The notes below the pieces were generated by a model. That model saw only the letters and a list, made by a program, of their open reading frames with translations. It made no database searches and was not told the DNA's origin. This document shows, piece after piece, positions 4,188 to 64,000 of a DNA stretch of 64,000 nucleotides; within the stretch, counting starts at the first letter, position 1; the number at the start of each line of letters is the position of its first letter. The DNA is from Dehalococcoidia bacterium. Its GTDB lineage: Bacteria; Chloroflexota; Dehalococcoidia; Lucifugimonadales; Australimonadaceae. A program made the translations under genes and the position numbers. Where the stretch lies: contig OZ244812.1 in assembly GCA_965220205.1 (NCBI GenBank), forward strand, positions 1,447,675-1,511,674, given 5' to 3'.

Positions 4188-5537
4188 CTACTGCCCAATC
4201 ATCCTGCGGCGCTCGGCTGCGTCTGCGCCCCCCTCCACGCCTCTGGCGTTGAGCACTGGGCTGTACTTGCTTGCAGCTCCCTGCCGCTTGAAGCCCAAGC
4301 CCCCCGTGCCCGTGCCGCCGAGGTCGCCGGCGTTGCGCGCCGCCGCCAGCTCGGCCGGGAGTTCGGTGTCCATCGCGAGGTAGGTGTTCTGCTCGGGATC
4401 GCGGAACGTGTTCATCGGCTCGCCGCCGTCCTCGACGATGCGGATGTTCTCCTCGAGCATCTTGCGGAACATGATGACCCCCACGTCGGACCGCCCGAGG
4501 TTCTCCCCGGTTCGGTCGGCGATGGCGCCCTGGGTGATCCACGCAGCGATGTCCTGCGCGCTGTTGCTATCGAGGATCGACCACTGCGGGTCGCCCTTCT
4601 CGTCGAGCTGGATCAACGGCGGCGAGAAGAAGGGCATATCCTCGGGCCGCTGCTCAGGCTCGCCCTCGGCCCTTGGATGGCACATCACCCACCAGTGTTG
4701 CGTGTGCGTGTCGTCGACGGGCACGCGAATCTGGAAGGCGGGACCCATCATGCCCCAATGGTCGCGGTGGAGGCCGGAGCCGCCCTGGCGCAAGAAGTAG
4801 GGAAACACGATTGGGTGTCCCTCGCGCCACGATGTGTCCTGCTCCGTGCCCCCCTCCATAACCCTGCGTTTGATGATGCCCCAATCGAACTCGGTGAAAC
4901 CGATCTTGGCGTGGCGGCGGTGAGGACGCTTGCTCTCGGGCTCGTCCCGCCGTTCGGCGATGTAGCTGGTCCAGTACGCGTGCAGCCACTCCAGGTGCAC
5001 CGGGTCGAGTGAGTTCTCCTGGCACTGCAGCCAGTTGCAGGGAAGGACCGTGTAGCCGGCGTCGCGCACCACGTCCGGGGCCGCGAAAACGTCCCAATTC
5101 GGAACGAGGGGCGCGGGCTGGGGACCGAGATAGGCGAACAGGAGGCCCGCCTTCTGTTCGACGGGGTAGGCCTTCATCGGCGTCTTGTCCTTGAAGCGGC
5201 CCGTAGGGTCCTCGGTCTCCTCGTAGGGCTGTTCGATGCAGGCCCCTGTCTCGTTGTACATCCAGCCGTGGTAGGAACACCGCAGGCCATGCTCCTCGGG
5301 GATGCCGTAGATCATGTTCATCCGCCGGTGAGCGCAGTGGGGCTCGAGCAGGCCGAAGGTGCCGGAGCGGTCCTTGTAGAGGATCAGGTCTTCGCCGAGC
5401 AGGCGTATCTTCTTTGTGTGGCGGTCCTTGAGCTCCGAAACCGCCGCGATGGGGTGCCAGTACCGCCGCATGAGCTCGCCGGTTGGCGTCCCGGGACCCA
5501 CTCGCGTGTAGCGGTCGTTCACCTCTGCTGTCAGCAT
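4188..5537 (-). CDS. Rieske [2Fe-2S] non-heme iron oxygenase, paralogue of 2852-4030
   Basis: ATG 5537 preceded by GAGGAGGG gives MLTAEVNDRYTRVGPGTPTGELMRRYWHPIAA, parallel to the neighbour's N-terminus. Motifs CAHRRMNM...CSYHGW and ENSLDPVHLEWLH; extra Gly-rich C-terminal tail. Confidence 0.85.
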   Translation of the reverse strand: MLTAEVNDRYTRVGPGTPTGELMRRYWHPIAAVSELKDRHTKKIRLLGEDLILYKDRSGTFGLLEPHCAHRRMNMIYGIPEEHGLRCSYHGWMYNETGACIEQPYEETEDPTGRFKDKTPMKAYPVEQKAGLLFAYLGPQPAPLVPNWDVFAAPDVVRDAGYTVLPCNWLQCQENSLDPVHLEWLHAYWTSYIAERRDEPESKRPHRRHAKIGFTEFDWGIIKRRVMEGGTEQDTSWREGHPIVFPYFLRQGGSGLHRDHWGMMGPAFQIRVPVDDTHTQHWWVMCHPRAEGEPEQRPEDMPFFSPPLIQLDEKGDPQWSILDSNSAQDIAAWITQGAIADRTGENLGRSDVGVIMFRKMLEENIRIVEDGGEPMNTFRDPEQNTYLAMDTELPAELAAARNAGDLGGTGTGGLGFKRQGAASKYSPVLNARGVEGGADAAERRRMIGQ

Positions 5538-5633
5538 CGTGCCCTCCTCGCCTGCGACTGTCGAGGCTGTTCCGCGCGCATCATACGCCGCGCGGCGACG
5601 GCCTGCCACGGGCCAGCCGGGGGCGCGGCGGCC

Positions 5634-6497
5634 TCACGCGAGGGCGTCGGCCCGGGGCGACTCGCGGACAGGACGAGCGCGGATGACGTGCGGGTAGAGG
5701 ACGAGCGCAATGCCAATTATGACGCTGCCGCCGATCGCGTCCACGACGTAATGGTTTCCCGTGATGGTGATGGCGAAGAACATGATGGCGGGGGAGAGGA
5801 GGCCAAGCAGCTTCAGGATGCGTGGGCCGGTGTTCCAGAAGATGAGCCCGAGCAGGATGGCCCAGCCGAAATGCAGGCTCGGCATCGCGGCGTAGGAGTT
5901 GTAGTAGAGATCGACATCCCACGCGGCGTACCAAGGCGGCCCGTAGACGGCGATGGTGTCGACGATTCCCTCGATGTTCATGAATCGAGGGGGCGCCAGC
6001 GGGTAGAGCGCGAACAGCGCGAGCGCCACGGCGAAGCTCAGCAGCACCATCCCCCGGTAGTACAGATACCGCTCGCGGTTCACGATGTACATGACGACGG
6101 CTGTGCCAAGAATGAGCGGGAAGAACGTCAGGATGTACAGATAGTTGAAGACGAGAATCGTCGTCTCGCCTCCGTTGCTGGCAACACCCTGCAGCCACGG
6201 CTCCCAGGACAGCCCGATGTAACGCTCGAGGGCGATGACGCTCCCTGCGTTGTCGACCCCAATCTCGTCGGCCCCGGGTGCGATCACTTTGCGGACCAGC
6301 ATGTAGGCGGAATAGGCAGCGAGGAGGAGGACCACTTCACGCAGGTGACTCAGCTTGCCCCGCTGCTCGCGCCGATCGTCGGCCACGGCGGCGCCGGCGG
6401 AACGGTTCAGCCGCAACCGCCCCTTCAAGAACCGCGCCGCGTTCAATAGGGCCGCGATCGGAGTGTCATACAGACTTCCCATCCCGGCCGCAGGCAC
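5634..6497 (-). CDS. PAP2-superfamily integral membrane protein (PAP2_C / inositolphosphorylceramide-synthase-like)
   Basis: Multi-TM ORF with AMPSLHFGW ... ITGNHYVVDAIGG motifs. Confidence 0.7.
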   Translation of the reverse strand: MPAAGMGSLYDTPIAALLNAARFLKGRLRLNRSAGAAVADDRREQRGKLSHLREVVLLLAAYSAYMLVRKVIAPGADEIGVDNAGSVIALERYIGLSWEPWLQGVASNGGETTILVFNYLYILTFFPLILGTAVVMYIVNRERYLYYRGMVLLSFAVALALFALYPLAPPRFMNIEGIVDTIAVYGPPWYAAWDVDLYYNSYAAMPSLHFGWAILLGLIFWNTGPRILKLLGLLSPAIMFFAITITGNHYVVDAIGGSVIIGIALVLYPHVIRARPVRESPRADALA

Positions 6498-14098: not shown

Positions 14099-14170
14099 CC
14101 TCCTCCCCGTCTGCGGGGAGGCTCATACTCCTCCTCCCCACGGCTCTGCGGGGGAGGATTGAGGAGGGGG
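14099..14170. terminator. pair of related G+C hairpins between convergent genes
   Basis: cctcctccccgtctgcggggagg (14099-14121) and ctcctcctccccacggctctgcgggggaggattgaggag (14128-14167) share the motif CCTCCCC-N-GGGGAGG; no U-tract. Confidence 0.35.
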
Positions 14171-14198
14171 CCCTTGGTGAGACGTGTCAACGGCCCGG

Positions 14199-15020
14199 CT
14201 ACGTCTCCAACGGCGTGTCGTCGCGGTTGGCCCACTGCCCCATCGAGCCGTCGTACATACAGACCTGGGGATGGCCAATCAGCGTTAGCGCGAACGCTGC
14301 GTGCGCCGCACGCACTCCGCCCTGTCAGTAGACATGGACGGTCGTTTCCGGCGTCACGCCAAGGCCGGCGACAAGCGCTGCGAGCTCGTCAGCCGACTTG
14401 AACGTGCCGTCTTCGTTGACCAGATGCACCCACTCCAAATGCTTGGCGCCCGGGACGTGTCCCACCCGCGCGTTCCCTCGTGAGTTCGCGCCCGTGAACT
14501 CATCCTCCGTGCGCACGTCCCAAATGACGGCGTCGTCCCGGCCAACGGCAGCCTGGAGCTTCTCTGCGGTCGACTCAATGCCGTGGTCCGGCGGCTTCGG
14601 CGTGAAGGCGCCCCCGGGGGCGACGGCCGCAGGGCCCGTCTCGATCGGCCGGCCCTCCGCGGACCACTTGGCCCACCCGCCGTTCAGCACTCTGACGTTG
14701 GTGTGTCCGTAGTACGTGAGCACCCACCACAGGCGCGCGGCGTCCCGGCACAGGAAGCGGTCGTAGCCGACCACCAGCGTATCGTCGCCGATCCCCACCG
14801 ACTCGAACCACGCCTTCGCCTCGTCGGCCGGCGCGACCAGTCTCGTGTTGACGGATCCCTTGATCTGCCATGTCGGGGAGAGGGCGGCGCCGGGGATGTG
14901 TCCGCCCTCGAAGGAGCTCCCGTCTTGGGCCATCTCCACGACCTGCACGTTGGGGTCGCCGAGGCGCTCAGCGAGCCACTCCGTCTCGACTAGCAGATCA
15001 GTCCTCGGGTAATCGGCCAT
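14199..15020 (-). CDS. two-domain rhodanese (thiosulfate/3-mercaptopyruvate sulfurtransferase-like) with in-frame TGA at the catalytic Cys codon: candidate selenoprotein (or recent pseudogene)
   Basis: ATG 15020 preceded by GGAGG. The track ORF ends ...TTVHVY at TGA 14327-14325. The same frame continues QGGVRAAHAAFALTLIGHPQVCMYDGSMGQWANRDDTPLET to TAG 14201-14199. The TGA sits where C of the CxxGxR active-site loop belongs. Confidence 0.75.
14290..14320 (-). other. SECIS-like stem-loop 3' of the rhodanese TGA
   Basis: mRNA GCGGA-G-UGCGUGC-GGC-GCACGCA-GCG-UUCGC; the 7-bp upper stem starts 11 nt after UGA and the G-rich apical loop lies at +21 to +23. Confidence 0.45.
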
Positions 15021-15109
15021 CCGGCGCCTCCGCGTGGACAACTACGGCTGGGAGGAACATGAGCACGTACGCGGGGCCGCTGTCCCCGAATCACCCGGAG
15101 AGCCGTCGC

Positions 15110-18022: not shown

Positions 18023-18138
18023 GCGTCGCGCCCCGTACAGCGCCGTCTCGGCGAGGGGGATCCGAGGGCTCGGCGCCCGCCCCTAGCCGCTTGCGCTATC
18101 CTCCCCCAGCCCCTACGCCCCGACACAGGCAAGGAGCC

Positions 18139-21100
18139 ATGACTACACACCTAGACCCAGACGACCCGCGCTATCGGCAAGCCGCCGCCGAGTTGCTCCG
18201 CCGCCACAATCTCTTCGAGGCGGAGGCGAACATCACCAGCGCCGTCCGCGATTTCCTCCTAATCACCGGACTCGCCCAGCCCGACCAGATTCACGAGGAA
18301 CAAGCGCCCGCCAGCGGATCGCCCCACGCCGTTGACCTCGTCGCACTCGACTCCTTCATCGAGGTGAAGCGGAGAGTAAGCGGCCACGGCGGTTTCGACC
18401 CGAATCCCGCCTACGTCGACCAACTGGACGCCTACCTGGAACAGTCCCACGCCCAGGGCGACCCCGGGCGCATGGGCATCCTCACCGACGGCAAATACTG
18501 GCTGCTCCGCTGGGCGGCCGCGGGTGACGTTCACACGACCTACCCATACGCGTTCTGGTTGGAGGATCCGGACCGATGGTTCACTCTCTACGAGTGGCTG
18601 CGCGACAAGGCGCTCGTCTCGTTCGAGGGCGAAATACCCACGCGGGAGAATATCGAAAAGCACTTCGGCGTCGGAAGCCCGGCTTGGGAGCGGGAAATCG
18701 GAGTACTCCGCGCCCTCAGACGCGAAGCTCTCCAGTCCGCTGACCGTTCCCCAACGGTCACCGTCAAGCAAGATCTCTGGCAGACCCTCCTCAAGACCGC
18801 TCTCGGCGAGCTCACCAGCTCCCAGGAAGAGCTGGACGACCTTTTCATCCGCCACACCCACCTCAGCATCGCCGTCGGCCTCATCCTCCAAGCCTCCTTC
18901 GGCATAGACATCCGCGAACTGGCGGACCGCGACGCCGCGGACCTGCTGCGGGGACAGCGCTTCCGTGACGACACCGGACTCCAAGGCATCGTCGAGTCCG
19001 ACTTCTTCGCGTGGCCCGCCGAAGTAGGCGGCGAGACCTTGATCCGTGACATCGCCCGCCGCGTCGCCCGGTTCGACTGGCTGCAGGCCCCGCCGGACAT
19101 CGCCGCCATCCTCTACGAGACCGTCATCCCAGCCCATGAGCGCTGGCAGCTCGGCGAGTACTACACACCGCGGTGGCTCGCGCGTTCCATCGTCGGGGAA
19201 CTCGTTGACAACCCCCTCGAACAGCGCGTCCTCGACCCCTCGTGCGGCTCCGGCACGTTCATCGCCGAAGCGATGGCCCACTTCATCACAGCCGCGCGGC
19301 AGGCCAAACTCCCGCCGGAAGAAGCCCTCCGCAGACTCCGCGAGTCCGTCACCGGCATCGACGTGCACCCCGTCGCCGTTCACCTCGCCCGCTCCGCGTG
19401 GGCGCTCGGGGCCAAGCCCCTCATAGAAGACGTTGTGAAGACCGGGGCCGACGCCTCCGTCTCCATCCCCGTCTACCTCGGCGACTCCCTCCTCCTGCGC
19501 CTCCGGGTCGGAGACATGCTGGCCGAGACCGAAATCAGCATCCCCGTCGAGGACGACGAGAACACGACCCTCGTCTTCCCGCGCAGCCTCGTAGACCGCG
19601 CCGACGACTTCGACCGCCTGATGAACGACATTGCCCGCGCCGTAGAAGCCGGGGACGATCCGGCGCTCACGCTCGGCAGGCATGATCTGAAGCCAAGCGA
19701 GCGCGCCGTCATGGAGCAGACGACCGCCACGATGCAGCAGTTGCATGATGAAGGCCGCAACCACATCTGGGCCTACTACACCCGCAACCTCGTCCGCCCC
19801 CTCGCGCTCACCCGCAACCGCAACCGGGTGGACGTGATCGTCGGCAATCCGCCCTGGCTCAACTACCGCAACACCGCCAACATCCTCCGCTCCGAGTTGG
19901 AGCGCCAGAGCAAGAGCGAGTACGGCATCTGGGCAGGCCGCCACTACTCCACCCATCAAGACGTCGCCGGCCTCTTCTACGCCCGCTGCGTCGACCTCTA
20001 CCTCAAGGACAACGGCGTCATCGGCATGGTCATGCCCCACAGCGCCTTGCAGGCCGGCCAATACGCCAAGTGGCGCACCGGCGAATGGCAGTCAACGAGC
20101 GGCGGCCGCGGCTTCACCCGGACCCTCGCGGTCCGCTTCAGCAGCTACAAGACCGCGTGGGACTTGGAACAGCTGGAGCCCAACAACTTCTTCCCCATGC
20201 CCGCGTCCGTAGTATTCGCGCAGCGCGCCGGAGCGAACGCCAAGGCTAGCCCACTCGCCGGACAGGTGGAGCGCTGGTTCGGCAGTCCGGGTTCGCCCCA
20301 CGTGCTGCGGCAGTTGGCCGCCACCACCGACACGTCCGCCCTGGGAGGTTCGCCCTACTCGCAGCACACCATCCAAGGCGCAGTTATCGTCCCTCGCCGC
20401 CTCTTCTTCGTGGAAGAAGTTGCCAGCACCGCCGTCGTCCGCGCCGCCCCCACCGTAACCGTCAACCCGCGCATGGGCACGCAGGACAAGGAACCTTGGA
20501 AGAGCATCGACCTCTCTGCGCTCACTCGTCAGTCCGTTGAGGCCGTCCACCTGTTCGACGTACACCTTGGAGAGACCGTCGTCCCCTACGCCACGCTCCC
20601 CCCGCTCAAAGCCATTCTCCCGCTGAAACGCGGCGATACAAAACTCCCCGTCAACCCGGACGGCGTGGGCGGCGTCAACGTCTCCGCGCTGGCGCAGCGG
20701 ATGCAGGCCCGCTGGCGCACTATCAGCCGCCTTTGGGAGGAGAACAAAGCTCCCGCAACAAAGTTGGATCTGCTTGAGCAGCTCAACTACTACGGCAAGT
20801 TCTCAGACCAACTCAACTGGCAGCGCGAACCTGGAGAACGACCCGTGAGGTTGGTCTACACCTCCGCAGGTGAACCCACCGCCGCGCTGCTCAACAGCGA
20901 CAAGGTCATAGTCGACTACAAACTTTTCTGGGTTTCCTGCCGAGACACCTACGAAGCTCACTATCTGCTCGCCATCATCAACAGCAAGACTTTGTATCAC
21001 GCGGTAACCCCTCTCATGTCCAAAGGCCTGTTCGGCGCGCGCGACCTCCAAAAGCACCTCTGGAAACTGCCCATTCCAGAGTTCGACCCCGCTAAACGCC

Positions 21101-21300
21101 TCCACGCGGCTATCGCAGATGCCGGAGCCACCGCCGCCGAGGGCGCGGTGCAACTCCTCGACCGTCTGCGCGCAAACCGTGGGGACGACCTCACCAGTAC
21201 GTACGCCCGCCGCGAGATACACAAGTGGCTCGCCGCCTCCGAGGAAGGCCGCGCCGTCGAGAAGGCCGTCGGGCGGCTGCTGCGCGCGGCTAGCTTGTAG
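18139..21300 (+). CDS. single-polypeptide Type IIG/IIL (MmeI-like) restriction-modification enzyme: N-terminal PD-ExK-like nuclease + gamma-class N6-adenine DNA methyltransferase + C-terminal target-recognition region
   Basis: ATG 18139 after AAGGAG; AVDLVALDSFIEVKRR (D...ExK); GEYYTPRWLA; motif I VLDPSCGSGTFI; motif IV VIVGNPPWLNY; ~400 aa further C-terminal. Confidence 0.75.
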   Translation: MTTHLDPDDPRYRQAAAELLRRHNLFEAEANITSAVRDFLLITGLAQPDQIHEEQAPASGSPHAVDLVALDSFIEVKRRVSGHGGFDPNPAYVDQLDAYLEQSHAQGDPGRMGILTDGKYWLLRWAAAGDVHTTYPYAFWLEDPDRWFTLYEWLRDKALVSFEGEIPTRENIEKHFGVGSPAWEREIGVLRALRREALQSADRSPTVTVKQDLWQTLLKTALGELTSSQEELDDLFIRHTHLSIAVGLILQASFGIDIRELADRDAADLLRGQRFRDDTGLQGIVESDFFAWPAEVGGETLIRDIARRVARFDWLQAPPDIAAILYETVIPAHERWQLGEYYTPRWLARSIVGELVDNPLEQRVLDPSCGSGTFIAEAMAHFITAARQAKLPPEEALRRLRESVTGIDVHPVAVHLARSAWALGAKPLIEDVVKTGADASVSIPVYLGDSLLLRLRVGDMLAETEISIPVEDDENTTLVFPRSLVDRADDFDRLMNDIARAVEAGDDPALTLGRHDLKPSERAVMEQTTATMQQLHDEGRNHIWAYYTRNLVRPLALTRNRNRVDVIVGNPPWLNYRNTANILRSELERQSKSEYGIWAGRHYSTHQDVAGLFYARCVDLYLKDNGVIGMVMPHSALQAGQYAKWRTGEWQSTSGGRGFTRTLAVRFSSYKTAWDLEQLEPNNFFPMPASVVFAQRAGANAKASPLAGQVERWFGSPGSPHVLRQLAATTDTSALGGSPYSQHTIQGAVIVPRRLFFVEEVASTAVVRAAPTVTVNPRMGTQDKEPWKSIDLSALTRQSVEAVHLFDVHLGETVVPYATLPPLKAILPLKRGDTKLPVNPDGVGGVNVSALAQRMQARWRTISRLWEENKAPATKLDLLEQLNYYGKFSDQLNWQREPGERPVRLVYTSAGEPTAALLNSDKVIVDYKLFWVSCRDTYEAHYLLAIINSKTLYHAVTPLMSKGLFGARDLQKHLWKLPIPEFDPAKRLHAAIADAGATAAEGAVQLLDRLRANRGDDLTSTYARREIHKWLAASEEGRAVEKAVGRLLRAASL

Positions 21301-42153: not shown

Positions 42154-43578
42154 ATGGCCGTCCACCCAGCCCCCCACGACCCCTCTTCGCGTTACGCCGA
42201 CGCTCTGCACCGGCTGCTGAGTCTCGCTGATCTCGAGCGCATGGTGGGGCCGTCCACTGCGCCGTACAAGCTGGACCTCGCCCGCATGCGCGAGCTCGCT
42301 CAACGGCTCGGCGCGCCGCAACTGACTGCCCCGGTGGCGCACGTCGCAGGCACGAAGGGAAAGGGCAGCGTGGCGGCGACAATCGCGAGCATCCTGCGGG
42401 CGTCGGGCCGCCGTGTGGGCCTGTTCACATCGCCGCATCTCCACACCTTCCGGGAACGGCTGCGGCTCGATGGCACGCCGTCCACGGAACTACAGTTCGC
42501 GTCGGCGCTGGAACGCGTGTGGCCGCACGTCGAGGCGATGAAGGCGGAAAGCCAGGAGGGGACTCCCACCACGTTCGAGACGCTCACTGCGATGGCGTTC
42601 AATCTGTTCCGGGACGAGGCAGTGGACGTGCAGGTGTTGGAGGTTGGCCTTGGCGGGAGGCTCGACGCGACCAACGTGGCGGAGGCGGCTGTACACGTGA
42701 TCACGTCGATCAGCCTCGACCACACGGCGATTCTCGGCGACACCCTGGCGAAGGTTGCCGGAGAGAAGGCTGGAATCATCAAGACGCCGGCTCCCGTGGT
42801 CGTCGCGCCGCAGCCGCCAGAGGCTATGGAGGTGATCCTGGCCAGGGCCGCCTCGATCGGGGCGCCGGTAACCCGCGTGGGGACGGACGTCACGATTGCT
42901 CCGCTCGAGCACAGTCTGAGCGGGCAGAGCTTCATCGTAAAGACGGCCGCGGGAGAGCACCGGCTAGCAGGGCGCCTGCTCGGCGAACACCAGCGGGAGA
43001 ACGTGGCGCTCGCGGTGGCGGCCGTGGAGGCGCTCGGGCTGCCCTGCCCGCCCGCGGCCTTCGTGGATGGCGTCGCGTCGGTGCGGTGGGACGGGCGCTT
43101 TCAGGTGCTCGCTCCGCTCCCGGGAGCGGAGCGCCGCGGACCAGTGGTAGTAGTCGATGGGGCGCACAACCCGTACTCCGCCGGGCGCTTGCGCGAGACA
43201 GCGCAGGAGTACGTCGCGCCCAAACGCACGACGCTGGTGTTCGGTTGCTCGCGGGACAAGGACCTCGAGGGGATGATCGACGCATTGTCGGGCCTCGCGA
43301 CGAGCGTGGTTGCTTGTGCGTCCCGACACCCGCGAGCGGTGGCCCCGGCGGAGGCGGCAGGCGCGTTCGAGCGCGCGGGCATACCCGCGCGGACGGCGCC
43401 CGACTTGCCCACGGCCCTTTCGATGGCGCAGGCCGAGTGCGGGACGGGCGACTTGGTGCTGGTCACCGGCTCGTTGTTCGTCGTGGCGGAGGCCCTCGAA
43501 GTGTGGTTCGGAATCGCGCCGGAGGTCTATCCGGAGCTCGACCCTGAGCAGGCATACGCGTCGGGAGGACGGCCGTGA
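42154..43578 (+). CDS. folC: bifunctional folylpolyglutamate synthase / dihydrofolate synthase (Mur ligase family)
   Basis: P-loop HVAGTKGKGS, ...SISLDHTAILG..., DGAHNPYSA. Confidence 0.88.
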   Translation: MAVHPAPHDPSSRYADALHRLLSLADLERMVGPSTAPYKLDLARMRELAQRLGAPQLTAPVAHVAGTKGKGSVAATIASILRASGRRVGLFTSPHLHTFRERLRLDGTPSTELQFASALERVWPHVEAMKAESQEGTPTTFETLTAMAFNLFRDEAVDVQVLEVGLGGRLDATNVAEAAVHVITSISLDHTAILGDTLAKVAGEKAGIIKTPAPVVVAPQPPEAMEVILARAASIGAPVTRVGTDVTIAPLEHSLSGQSFIVKTAAGEHRLAGRLLGEHQRENVALAVAAVEALGLPCPPAAFVDGVASVRWDGRFQVLAPLPGAERRGPVVVVDGAHNPYSAGRLRETAQEYVAPKRTTLVFGCSRDKDLEGMIDALSGLATSVVACASRHPRAVAPAEAAGAFERAGIPARTAPDLPTALSMAQAECGTGDLVLVTGSLFVVAEALEVWFGIAPEVYPELDPEQAYASGGRP

Positions 43579-44905: not shown

Positions 44906-45139
44906 ATGAGCACCGAGAGCACACTCGTCGTCTACACACGTCCGGACTGCACCTATTCCGACGCGTTGTTGCACGACCTCAAGAAGGACGATGTTCCATA
45001 CGAGCAGATCGACTTGGAGGAGCACCCGGAGTTCGTCGAAGTGGTTGAGCGGCTCACCGGCGGCGACCGGGTGACGCCGGTCATGGTGGAAGGCGACTTG
45101 GTAATCGTCGGCTACCACGGTATAGGCTGAGCGTTCTAG
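44906..45139 (+). CDS. small glutaredoxin-like protein; C-terminus ...GIG-TGA-Ala-Phe-TAG, candidate U-x-x-stop selenoprotein
   Basis: MSTESTLVVYTRPDCTYSDALLHDLKKDDVPYEQIDLEEHPEFVEVVERLTGGDRVTPVMVEGDLVIVGYHGIG, then TGA (45128-45130) GCG TTC TAG (45137-45139). Starts at 44894 or 44897 are also possible. Confidence 0.7.
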
Positions 45140-45143
45140 AACG

Positions 45144-45162
45144 GACGGGCGGTCCGCCCGTC
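45144..45162 (+). other. SECIS-like hairpin 3' of the glutaredoxin-like TGA
   Basis: GACGGGCG-GUC-CGCCCGUC (8 bp; or 7 bp with loop GGUCC); loop at +25 to +27 from the U of UGA; no trailing U-tract. Confidence 0.4.
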
Positions 45163-45169
45163 ACACCGC

Positions 45170-45248
45170 GGCCCGGTGGTGTAGTCTGGTTCAACACGCC
45201 GCCCTGTCAAGGCGGAGATCACGAGTTCAAATCTCGTCCGGGTCGCCA
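45170..45248 (+). tRNA. tRNA-Asp (anticodon GUC), CCA encoded
   Basis: GGCCCGG UG GUGU AGUCUGGUUCA ACAC G CCGCC CUGUCAA GGCGG AGAUC ACGAG UUCAAAU CUCGU CCGGGUC G CCA. Confidence 0.92.
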
Positions 45249-63018: not shown

Positions 63019-63093
63019 TGGTAGCGGGGCCAGGACTCGAACCTGGGACCTTCGGGTTATGAGCCCGACGAGCTGCCACTGCTCCACCCCGCA
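63019..63093 (-). tRNA. initiator tRNA-fMet (anticodon CAU), CCA encoded
   Basis: Reverse complement TGCGGGGTGGAGCAGTGGCAGCTCGTCGGGCTCATAACCCGAAGGTCCCAGGTTCGAGTCCTGGCCCCGCTACCA. It has three G:C pairs closing the anticodon stem and a 1:72 mismatch (U.U), both initiator hallmarks. Confidence 0.85.

Positions 63094-63166: not shown

Positions 63167-64000
<834 letters not shown>

Follow-up and report, generated by a model that had tools for sequence, protein, structure and literature searches.

A two-domain rhodanese of a Dehalococcoidia bacterium with a predicted selenocysteine at its catalytic site, encoded by an in-frame UGA ahead of a compact SECIS-like hairpin

The stretch of DNA analysed here, 64,000 nucleotides (nt) of a Dehalococcoidia bacterium (assembly GCA_965220205.1, contig OZ244812.1, positions 1,447,675 to 1,511,674; hereafter the window), contains on its minus strand a rhodanese gene whose reading frame is interrupted by a single TGA. 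From sequence, translation, Pfam, alignment to structures in the Protein Data Bank (PDB) and orthologues, we annotate 14199..15020 as the coding sequence of a predicted selenoprotein of 273 amino acids (aa), a two-domain rhodanese-type sulfurtransferase in which the TGA would be read as selenocysteine (Sec) with the help of a selenocysteine insertion sequence (SECIS). Its ATG at 15020 agrees with the N-termini of orthologues (MADYPRTDLLVE...) and is preceded, 6 nt upstream, by a Shine-Dalgarno-like GGAGG (15027..15031, minus strand). The frame meets the TGA at 14327-14325 after ...TTVHVY and continues through 41 further codons (QGGVRAAHAAFALTLIGHPQVCMYDGSMGQWANRDDTPLET) to a TAG at 14199..14201, which we take as the true stop from the sequence itself and from the orthologues, which end at the same place (...DDTPLE[VT] and a stop). 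An earlier reading of the same DNA, made without database searches (the sequence-only reading), had given the coordinates of the gene and its TGA, the open frame and its rhodanese-like C-terminus correctly, with a restored length of ~275 aa. The window holds this one rhodanese only.

Pfam PF00581 (Rhodanese) matches the protein in two stretches (E 6e-32). The better one, residues 151-265, covers profile positions 1-101 of 102 and, together with the PDB alignment, marks the C-terminal catalytic domain (14226..14570, minus strand), which includes the UGA. The N-terminal rhodanese domain, placed at approximately residues 4-125 (14646..15011, minus strand) by Pfam, the PDB alignment and our alignment A1 of relatives, is presumed non-catalytic and lacks a conserved cysteine (Cys); in A1, Y86, D87 and R88 of this domain are invariant and Cys90 is not conserved. 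A phmmer comparison with the PDB aligns residues 4-271 colinearly with residues 3-280 of 1UAR (E 5e-47). The catalytic Cys of 1UAR (in CRIAER) and that of 3HWI (in CRIGER) both fall exactly at the TGA, and the alignment reaches residue 271-272. The gene thus encodes two tandem rhodanese domains and a length within the family range of ~270-300 aa, and its six-residue loop is right in length and position, but the head of that loop is a UGA and not a Cys codon. With Sec as residue 232 (14325..14327, minus strand; supported by the PDB alignment, the relatives and an independent assembly), the loop would read U-Q-G-G-V-R, making the protein a Sec variant of the two-domain rhodanese family.

Known Cys rhodaneses, namely 1UAR (Thermus thermophilus), the thiosulfate sulfurtransferases 3HWI and 3AAX (Mycobacterium tuberculosis), and Azotobacter RhdA (1E0C), are colinear with the window protein over their full length (E 5e-47 to 1e-31) and share with it an inactive N-terminal and a catalytic C-terminal domain, a six-residue loop and an Arg at +5. 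They differ in the loop itself, which is UQGG[VI]R with a UGA-encoded residue in the window protein and its kin, and CRI[AG]ER or CQTHHR in the others. Cys90 and Cys253 of the window protein are clade-specific, and because no second conserved Cys stands beside the Sec, the site is not a UxxC-type redox pair. The product is of the thiosulfate/3-mercaptopyruvate sulfurtransferase type, and homology predicts sulfurtransferase activity (thiosulfate:cyanide or 3-mercaptopyruvate). Three narrower assignments were rejected. The protein scores 125.7 bits against the SseA (3-mercaptopyruvate sulfurtransferase) equivalog model NF008557, below the curated cut-off of 250, and its UQGGVR loop differs from the CG[ST]GVT motif of SseA-type proteins; NF041203 (rhodanese_LYCAU) gives 36.3 bits against a cut-off of 115, on the N-terminal domain; and ExtH (NF040901) gives 59.2 bits against a cut-off of 200.

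We compared the gene with its counterparts in 80 species-level genomes, each represented by one 20-kb locus (L001-L080) and comprising Dehalococcoidia, SAR202 and other Chloroflexota metagenome-assembled genomes (MAGs) as well as one Candidatus Entotheonella. At the catalytic column, scored across 95 orthologues and paralogues, 91 genes have TGA, three TGC and one TGT, with neither TAA nor TAG in any of them, and the TGA-bearing genes come from 76 of the 80 species genomes. An enlarged control, a metagenome scan using an alignment of the Cys forms, contributed an extra 47 TGA genes and 25 Cys genes; the same TGA is thus found on 47 metagenome contigs as well, and an independent assembly contains the identical gene, TGA included. 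The ~90 top protein matches (94% to ~55% identity) are all called as proteins of 230-235 aa that end in H-[VIA]-Y, and the full-length Cys relatives, of 271-289 aa, read YCQGG[VI]RAAH.

Past the TGA, the frame is open in every relative for 41-47 codons, runs to a common endpoint and is better conserved than the part upstream. The ratio of nonsynonymous to synonymous substitution (dN/dS), computed against close orthologues for codons +10 to +38 after the TGA, is 0.055-0.26 at dS 0.5-2.4, and no premature stop was found in 88 genes. On these values, the downstream codons are under purifying selection. In at least 15 genomes a further rhodanese, a tandem paralogue, lies ~1-1.9 kb upstream of the main gene (loci L039, L042, L046, L048, L050, L051, L053, L054, L058, L059, L061, L063, L066, L069 and L070); it has a TGA at its own catalytic site with the same hairpin after it, a U-Q-A-G-L-R loop and an acidic C-terminal extension.

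The hairpin that follows the UGA in the window, UGCGUGC-GGC-GCACGCA at 14314-14298, has a loop that occupies +21 to +23, counting from the U of UGA. Its putative SECIS core (14299..14313, minus strand), delimited by pair conservation, synonymous constraint and folding, consists of a 6-bp stem, GCGUGC/GCACGC, and a 3-nt loop, and an 11-nt spacer (14314..14324, minus strand), defined by our RNA alignment A2 and RNAalifold, separates it from the UGA. The apical loop, GGC (14305..14307, minus strand; G[G/U]C in relatives), lies 17 nt past the UGA and is, from the alignment and the loop rule below, the presumed contact of SelB. The published model of bacterial SECIS elements (bSECIS) specifies a loop of 3-9 nt, a stem of 4-16 bp, a UGA-to-loop distance of 16-37 nt, a minimum free energy of -7.5 kcal/mol or lower, and a G as first or second loop nucleotide, most often in the form GG or GU. 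The window element agrees with it throughout, having a GGC loop, 6-7 bp, 17 nt between UGA and loop, and -10.5 kcal/mol. This energy of the 17-nt hairpin corresponds to a z of -2.7 relative to shuffled sequences. Its exact geometry (11-nt spacer, six Watson-Crick pairs, 3-nt loop) occurs at this TGA alone among the 1530 in the window. Rfam returned no match in 14150-14450 at its gathering threshold or at E values up to 10, and apparently contains no matching bacterial SECIS family. Within the window, the hairpin by itself is weak evidence for a SECIS, and folding energy cannot decide because the DNA is 66% GC; we therefore relied on comparative tests.

RNAalifold, applied to the 85 distinct Sec forms of A2 (spacer in columns 10-20, stem from column 21, loop in columns 27-29), predicts a single helix of six pairs that starts exactly 11 nt past the UGA and closes a G[G/U]C loop. 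The outermost pair, 21-35, is C-G in 61 forms, G-C in 22 and A-U in 1, with more A-U cases among the metagenome loci, and where it changes, the protein shows linked replacements of Val/Ile and Ala/Gly. The remaining five pairs are kept in 83-85 of the 85 sequences, and pair 25-31 shows a compensatory switch from G-C to U-A in one metagenome locus (L159). The hairpin and loop position described by the sequence-only reading thus stand, but two outer parts of its structure do not carry over to the relatives. The outer U-A pair (14314/14298, a seventh bp in the window) is kept in only 25 of the 85 sequences. The lower stem GCGGA/UUCGC can form in the window (-15.5 kcal/mol) but is indistinguishable there from shuffles (z -0.8); pairing holds in only 66% of its cells across the 85 sequences, and the stem is absent from the RNAalifold prediction.

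Constraint on the RNA is visible in the synonymous sites of the stem. At codons +5 to +8 (Arg, Ala, Ala, His), third positions carry 0-0.15 bit of variation compared with 1.0-1.8 at flanking four-fold sites, and 89 of 91 genes use CGT for the Arg, at a genomic GC content of ~66%. Because these synonymous third positions are frozen, the invariance of the stem is not due to the protein. When the comparison is limited to genes encoding the same Q-x-G-[VI]-R-A-A-H (97 Sec forms, 16 Cys forms), the 12-mer CGTGCGGCGCAC is present in 95 of the 97 Sec forms and in one of the 16 Cys forms, which encode identical RAAH amino acids, a difference with a Fisher value of 1e-15 that overstates independence, since each of the two sets is clustered in the phylogeny. 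With the metagenome loci included (125 distinct Sec forms and 30 Cys forms), the canonical hairpin is present in 114 of the Sec forms and one of the Cys forms. That sole Cys exception, L088:1288 (Ga0101943_1000111), has TGC together with the full canonical hairpin and the codons CGT GCG GCG CAC, and probably changed from Sec to Cys recently, so that its SECIS would be a fossil.

Departures among the Sec forms follow a pattern. Three of them (L065, L077 and L079) retain five of the six pairs. Eight are clearly without the canonical hairpin (two or three of six pairs), and these belong to two subclades, named AAQS and AANS, and to L150. The AAQS, AANS and L150 forms have replacement hairpins placed 3-8 nt beyond the canonical site; their loops, GUC, GUU, GUG or AGUU, all have a G as first or second nucleotide. 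These replacement hairpins are instances of SECIS turnover inside one protein family. The loci concerned are L057, L132, L139 and L141 in the AAQS clade, L140, L146-148, L153 and L162 in the AANS clade, and L150; loss of the canonical hairpin in these subclades accompanies changes in the encoded amino acids.

The closest familiar comparison is the SECIS of Escherichia coli fdhF, taken together with the bSECIS model. Shared features are a hairpin within the coding sequence right after the UGA, a small loop with G followed by G or U, and an upper stem of 6-7 bp. The window element differs from fdhF in being 15-17 nt long (fdhF, ~40 nt), in its 3-nt loop, in having neither a bulged U nor a conserved lower helix, and in its unrelated sequence. 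Liu et al. are said to have found in 1998 that the minimal E. coli element is the upper stem-loop 11 nt after the UGA, the spacing seen here.

The rhodanese is accompanied by other candidate selenoprotein genes in this group of genomes. When the 80 loci were scanned for further in-frame TGAs flanked on either side by coding signal, four genes belonging to known selenoprotein families emerged. Three are of the PrdB/GrdB family, L001:4139 and L050:2963 with a U-x-x-C motif and the more distant L071:2634 with T-U-G-T; the fourth, L012:362, is deiodinase-like, with a thioredoxin fold and the motif FGSVT-U-PPC. Profile matches cross the TGA in L001, L050 and L012, and the assignment of L071 comes from a tblastn alignment to the L001 protein, which likewise extends across the TGA. 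The hairpins of these four genes start 10-12 nt past the UGA, have 6-8 bp and carry the loops GGUCA, GGC, GGU and GUC. Their architecture is common to the rhodanese, as expected if one SelB reads them all. Two of the loci, moreover, belong to SAR202 bins of sponge symbionts with a published gene content. L004 (MPMJ01000004.1) is from bin16, has a GC content of 65.6% compared with 65.8% for the window and encodes an orthologue that is 78% identical; L050 (MPMM01000002.1) is from bin22 and carries an orthologue as well. SelA (COG1921), SelB (COG3276) and SelD (COG0709) are reported in both bins, and the same Sel proteins in the other three SAR202 bins too (Slaby et al. 2017, Tables 2 and S4).

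What the sequences show directly is how the gene is built, that Sec and Cys forms pair at one column, that the UGA is conserved, that the downstream codons are under selection and that the hairpin is constrained at the RNA level. Taken together, these observations make it very probable, on comparative sequence grounds, that the TGA is a selenocysteine codon at the catalytic site of a two-domain rhodanese, read via the downstream SECIS hairpin. This is what the sequence-only reading had proposed, and it is upheld by the TGA of the relatives, the Cys homologues, the selection, the conserved hairpin and the agreement with bSECIS, with the SelA, SelB and SelD published for two genomes carrying orthologues counted among the support. 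Several of the checks that it had suggested also came out in its favor: an alignment of homologues showed Cys/Sec pairs, TGA in close relatives and compensatory hairpin changes; the window element passed every bacterial SECIS rule; and the 41 downstream codons, which it had asked about as possible neutral decay, gave the low dN/dS reported above.

Following the known bacterial pathway, SelB-GTP and Sec-tRNA(Sec) would be held on the mRNA by the hairpin when the ribosome meets the UGA at 14327-14325, Sec would be inserted in place of termination, and translation would run 41 codons on to the TAG. By analogy to the persulfide of rhodanese, the selenolate would then take a sulfane sulfur from a donor, forming an Se-S(-) intermediate, and pass it to an acceptor. 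A ping-pong cycle of the rhodanese type with an Se-S(-) adduct is, by this analogy, the most likely mechanism. Without selenium, only an inactive fragment of 231 aa would be made.

Several points weigh against the selenocysteine reading and should be set beside this evidence. No selA, selB, selD or tRNA-Sec was found in the 64-kb window or in the 80 20-kb loci. The protein genes were sought by tblastn with E. coli K-12 queries, and tRNA-Sec by ARAGORN and Rfam in the window and by ARAGORN in the 80 loci, a search in which atypical 8/4 forms may be missed; tRNA-Sec has been described in Chloroflexi and reported to be of this atypical 8/4 type. As no sel match lies near the gene, the machinery is not linked to the rhodanese gene. 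The evidence for that machinery consists of the COG tables of two related metagenome bins, where binning errors are possible. Selenium has been seen at the protein level in no member of the family; the tryptic peptide expected across Sec232 is SADELAALVAGLGVTPETTVHVY-U-QGGVR. At the RNA level, the covarying stem pairs number two only, and the invariance of the others says nothing on its own about structure. The wider context of the hairpin folds like shuffled sequence (z 0.24 for 61 nt, approximately -0.9 for 31-45 nt), and 131 of the 1530 TGAs in the window (8.6%) have a hairpin of at least 6 bp with a loop G at a plausible distance. To these we add the phylogenetic clustering of the Sec and Cys sets mentioned above.

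The alternative that survives best accepts the recoding of UGA through SECIS and SelB but supposes that Cys, or a mixture of Sec and Cys, is inserted via a non-canonical SelB-dependent tRNA(Cys). DNA alone cannot tell Sec from Cys insertion, and Chloroflexi do have an unusual 8/4-type tRNA(Sec). Vargas-Rodriguez et al. are said to have described, in 2018, a tRNA(Cys) that depends on SelB and recodes Sec-UGA to Cys, which counts in favor of this possibility. We nevertheless consider it improbable. SelA and SelD, present in related SAR202 bins, are needed only for Sec-tRNA(Sec) or selenophosphate, and the PrdB/GrdB-like and deiodinase-like genes of the same genomes have TGA where Sec is expected. 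Keeping a UGA and a hairpin over dozens of species would also be costly when TGC suffices, and forms with a Cys codon do exist and lose the hairpin.

A second alternative, that the UGA is a true stop, with a functional 231-aa fragment and downstream codons conserved as a small peptide or regulatory RNA, finds its support in annotation, since gene callers and GenBank give the family 231-238 aa, and in the ordinary use of TGA as a stop elsewhere in the window. The fragment, however, would contain neither the catalytic residue nor the active-site loop, and would be missing the end of the rhodanese domain present in solved structures. No downstream start codon is conserved (most relatives have ATC in place of the GTG at codon +4). 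In 91 of 91 genes the codons past the UGA continue the upstream open reading frame (ORF) in phase; they are under purifying selection and align colinearly with the C-terminal ends of Cys forms. Furthermore, TGA is the one stop codon used at this site, with TAA and TAG never found there. We regard this alternative as highly improbable.

Seen in a single sequence, an in-frame stop would by default be put down to a recent nonsense mutation, to a pseudogene or to an error of sequencing in the genome concerned, and the sequence-only reading had named mutation or a base-call error as its alternative; the comparative data exclude this explanation, with the same TGA in 91 genes of 76 of the 80 species, on the metagenome contigs and in the independent assembly, and with no decay downstream, so that we give it next to no weight. 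An altered code in which UGA generally specifies an amino acid (Trp or Gly), as occurs in some bacteria, deserves equally little credence, being contradicted by 17 other, well-supported window genes for which TGA is the normal stop (among them one with a GTGA stop/start overlap at 43575-43578), by read-through extensions of those genes that are short and non-coding-like, and by a 66% GC content unlike that of the known UGA-reassigned lineages. Because those genes end in TGA and their extensions are junk, we take the genetic code to be standard.

Two other window TGAs were considered as recoding sites and rejected. The sequence-only reading had counted a second TGA-plus-hairpin case at 45128 as making a shared mechanism more likely, but this TGA proved to be the ordinary stop of a 74-aa glutaredoxin-family ORF, with a TAG two codons later and a terminator-like hairpin before a tRNA-Asp. 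The ORF (44906-45130, plus strand) matches PF00462 and has a CxxS motif, CTYS; the hairpin lies at ~45140-45165 and the tRNA-Asp at 45170-45248. The TGA at 5636-5634 (minus strand), the only other read-through candidate to emerge in the window, parts two unrelated adjacent genes that share one frame by chance, a membrane protein at 6497..5634 and a gene at 5609..4188, which has its own start (MLTAEVNDRY) eight codons later. On stop codon usage as a whole, high-GC bacteria usually favor TGA. Here TAG is the most frequent stop: crude calls based on GC3 gave 27 TAG, 18 TGA and 5 TAA in the window, despite its ~66% GC, and the pooled stops of the 80 related loci are 404 TAG, 310 TGA and 175 TAA (~45%, 35% and 20%).

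Selenocysteine rhodaneses have been predicted before. In 2005, a "rhodanese-related sulfurtransferase" (COG2897) with a predicted SECIS was put forward as one of the novel selenoprotein families of the Sargasso Sea, and sulfurtransferase selenoproteins (cd01449, COG2897) turn up again in the Global Ocean Sampling (GOS) survey. Rhodanese forms with a UxxG motif are listed in a 2026 review, which describes nearly all such families as known from bioinformatics only and functionally uncharacterised; the published lists hold 1-8 sequences per sulfurtransferase entry. The statement in the sequence-only reading that rhodanese-type selenoproteins had been listed from metagenomes yet were uncharacterised is therefore borne out. 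The Sec rhodanese family has been predicted since 2005, and the window gene is a further member of it, so that the reading is correct but not new.

The window protein shares with the published rhodanese-related sulfurtransferase selenoprotein the COG2897 two-domain type, Sec in place of the catalytic Cys, the UxxG motif (U-Q-G-G), a downstream SECIS with G in a small loop, a marine or metagenomic origin and many Cys homologues. Judged by motif, COG class and habitat, it would correspond to published form 4 rather than form 2. Published representatives of the forms are AACY01016424, MCY3690685.1 and MBM9537886.1; MCY4582433.1, an orthologue from a sponge MAG, is in an accession series neighbouring that of MCY3690685.1, which is only suggestive. 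Other Sec-containing rhodaneses, namely the single-domain NF041203 rhodanese_LYCAU (CxU), form 1 (UxxS) and the TsoB rhodanese/DsbD fusion (UxxxxU), have the rhodanese fold and Sec in common with the window protein and differ from it in architecture, Sec position and motif. A difference from the published entries is that Sec is here the majority state, present in 76 of the 80 Dehalococcoidia/SAR202 species and often in two tandem copies. What may go beyond the published lists is the dominance of Sec in this class, the occurrence of tandem copies, and a SECIS that is tightly defined and turns over in subclades.

The genes around the rhodanese are of a housekeeping kind, encoding a signal peptidase, a SIMPL protein, a CDF transporter and glycyl-tRNA synthetase (GlyRS). 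Synteny is kept within the close clade only, so that the neighbours give no clue to function. A 1069-aa N6-adenine methylase/Eco57I-like restriction-modification protein at 18091-21300 (plus strand) has no counterpart in the 80 otherwise syntenic loci and may represent an insertion, specific to the strain, between GlyRS and the conserved gene that follows. At the end of the window, 63167-64000 (minus strand) is the 3' end of a 23S rRNA, followed 74 nt on by a tRNA with anticodon CAT (63019-63093); between the two, no 5S rRNA was matched at the Rfam gathering threshold.

Our findings bear on how these genes are annotated. Public entries of the family are almost all cut at the Sec codon and named "rhodanese-like domain-containing protein" or "sulfurtransferase", at 231-238 aa (among them MCY4582433.1, MDE2837490.1, MDA0799223.1, MQF86685.1, MCH8848021.1 and MCI0815684.1). 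Hundreds of records thus lack the catalytic residue together with the 41 residues that follow it, and recognition of the Sec codon corrects the annotation. The compact SECIS (11-nt spacer, 6-bp stem, G[G/U]N loop) is common to the PrdB/GrdB-like and deiodinase-like genes of the lineage; it could sharpen selenoprotein prediction in these genomes and offer a clean system for studying how SelB recognizes a SECIS.

The data indicate that SAR202 and other Dehalococcoidia use selenium in sulfur-transfer chemistry. A bolder view is that the Sec form is the default of this sulfurtransferase in Dehalococcoidia/SAR202 and may perform chemistry that no Cys rhodanese does. The distribution that this view builds on is plain from the genomes, in nearly all of which the catalytic codon is TGA, while a distinct chemistry or role is speculation, and we consider the view as a whole rather unlikely. 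If it were true, a routine step of sulfur transfer would be selenium dependent in a group that is among the most abundant bacteria of the dark ocean and of sponges, and the enzyme might carry sulfane sulfur or selenium on an Se-S or Se-Se intermediate, perhaps feeding the trafficking of selenium and sulfur rather than serving as a plain thiosulfate sulfurtransferase.

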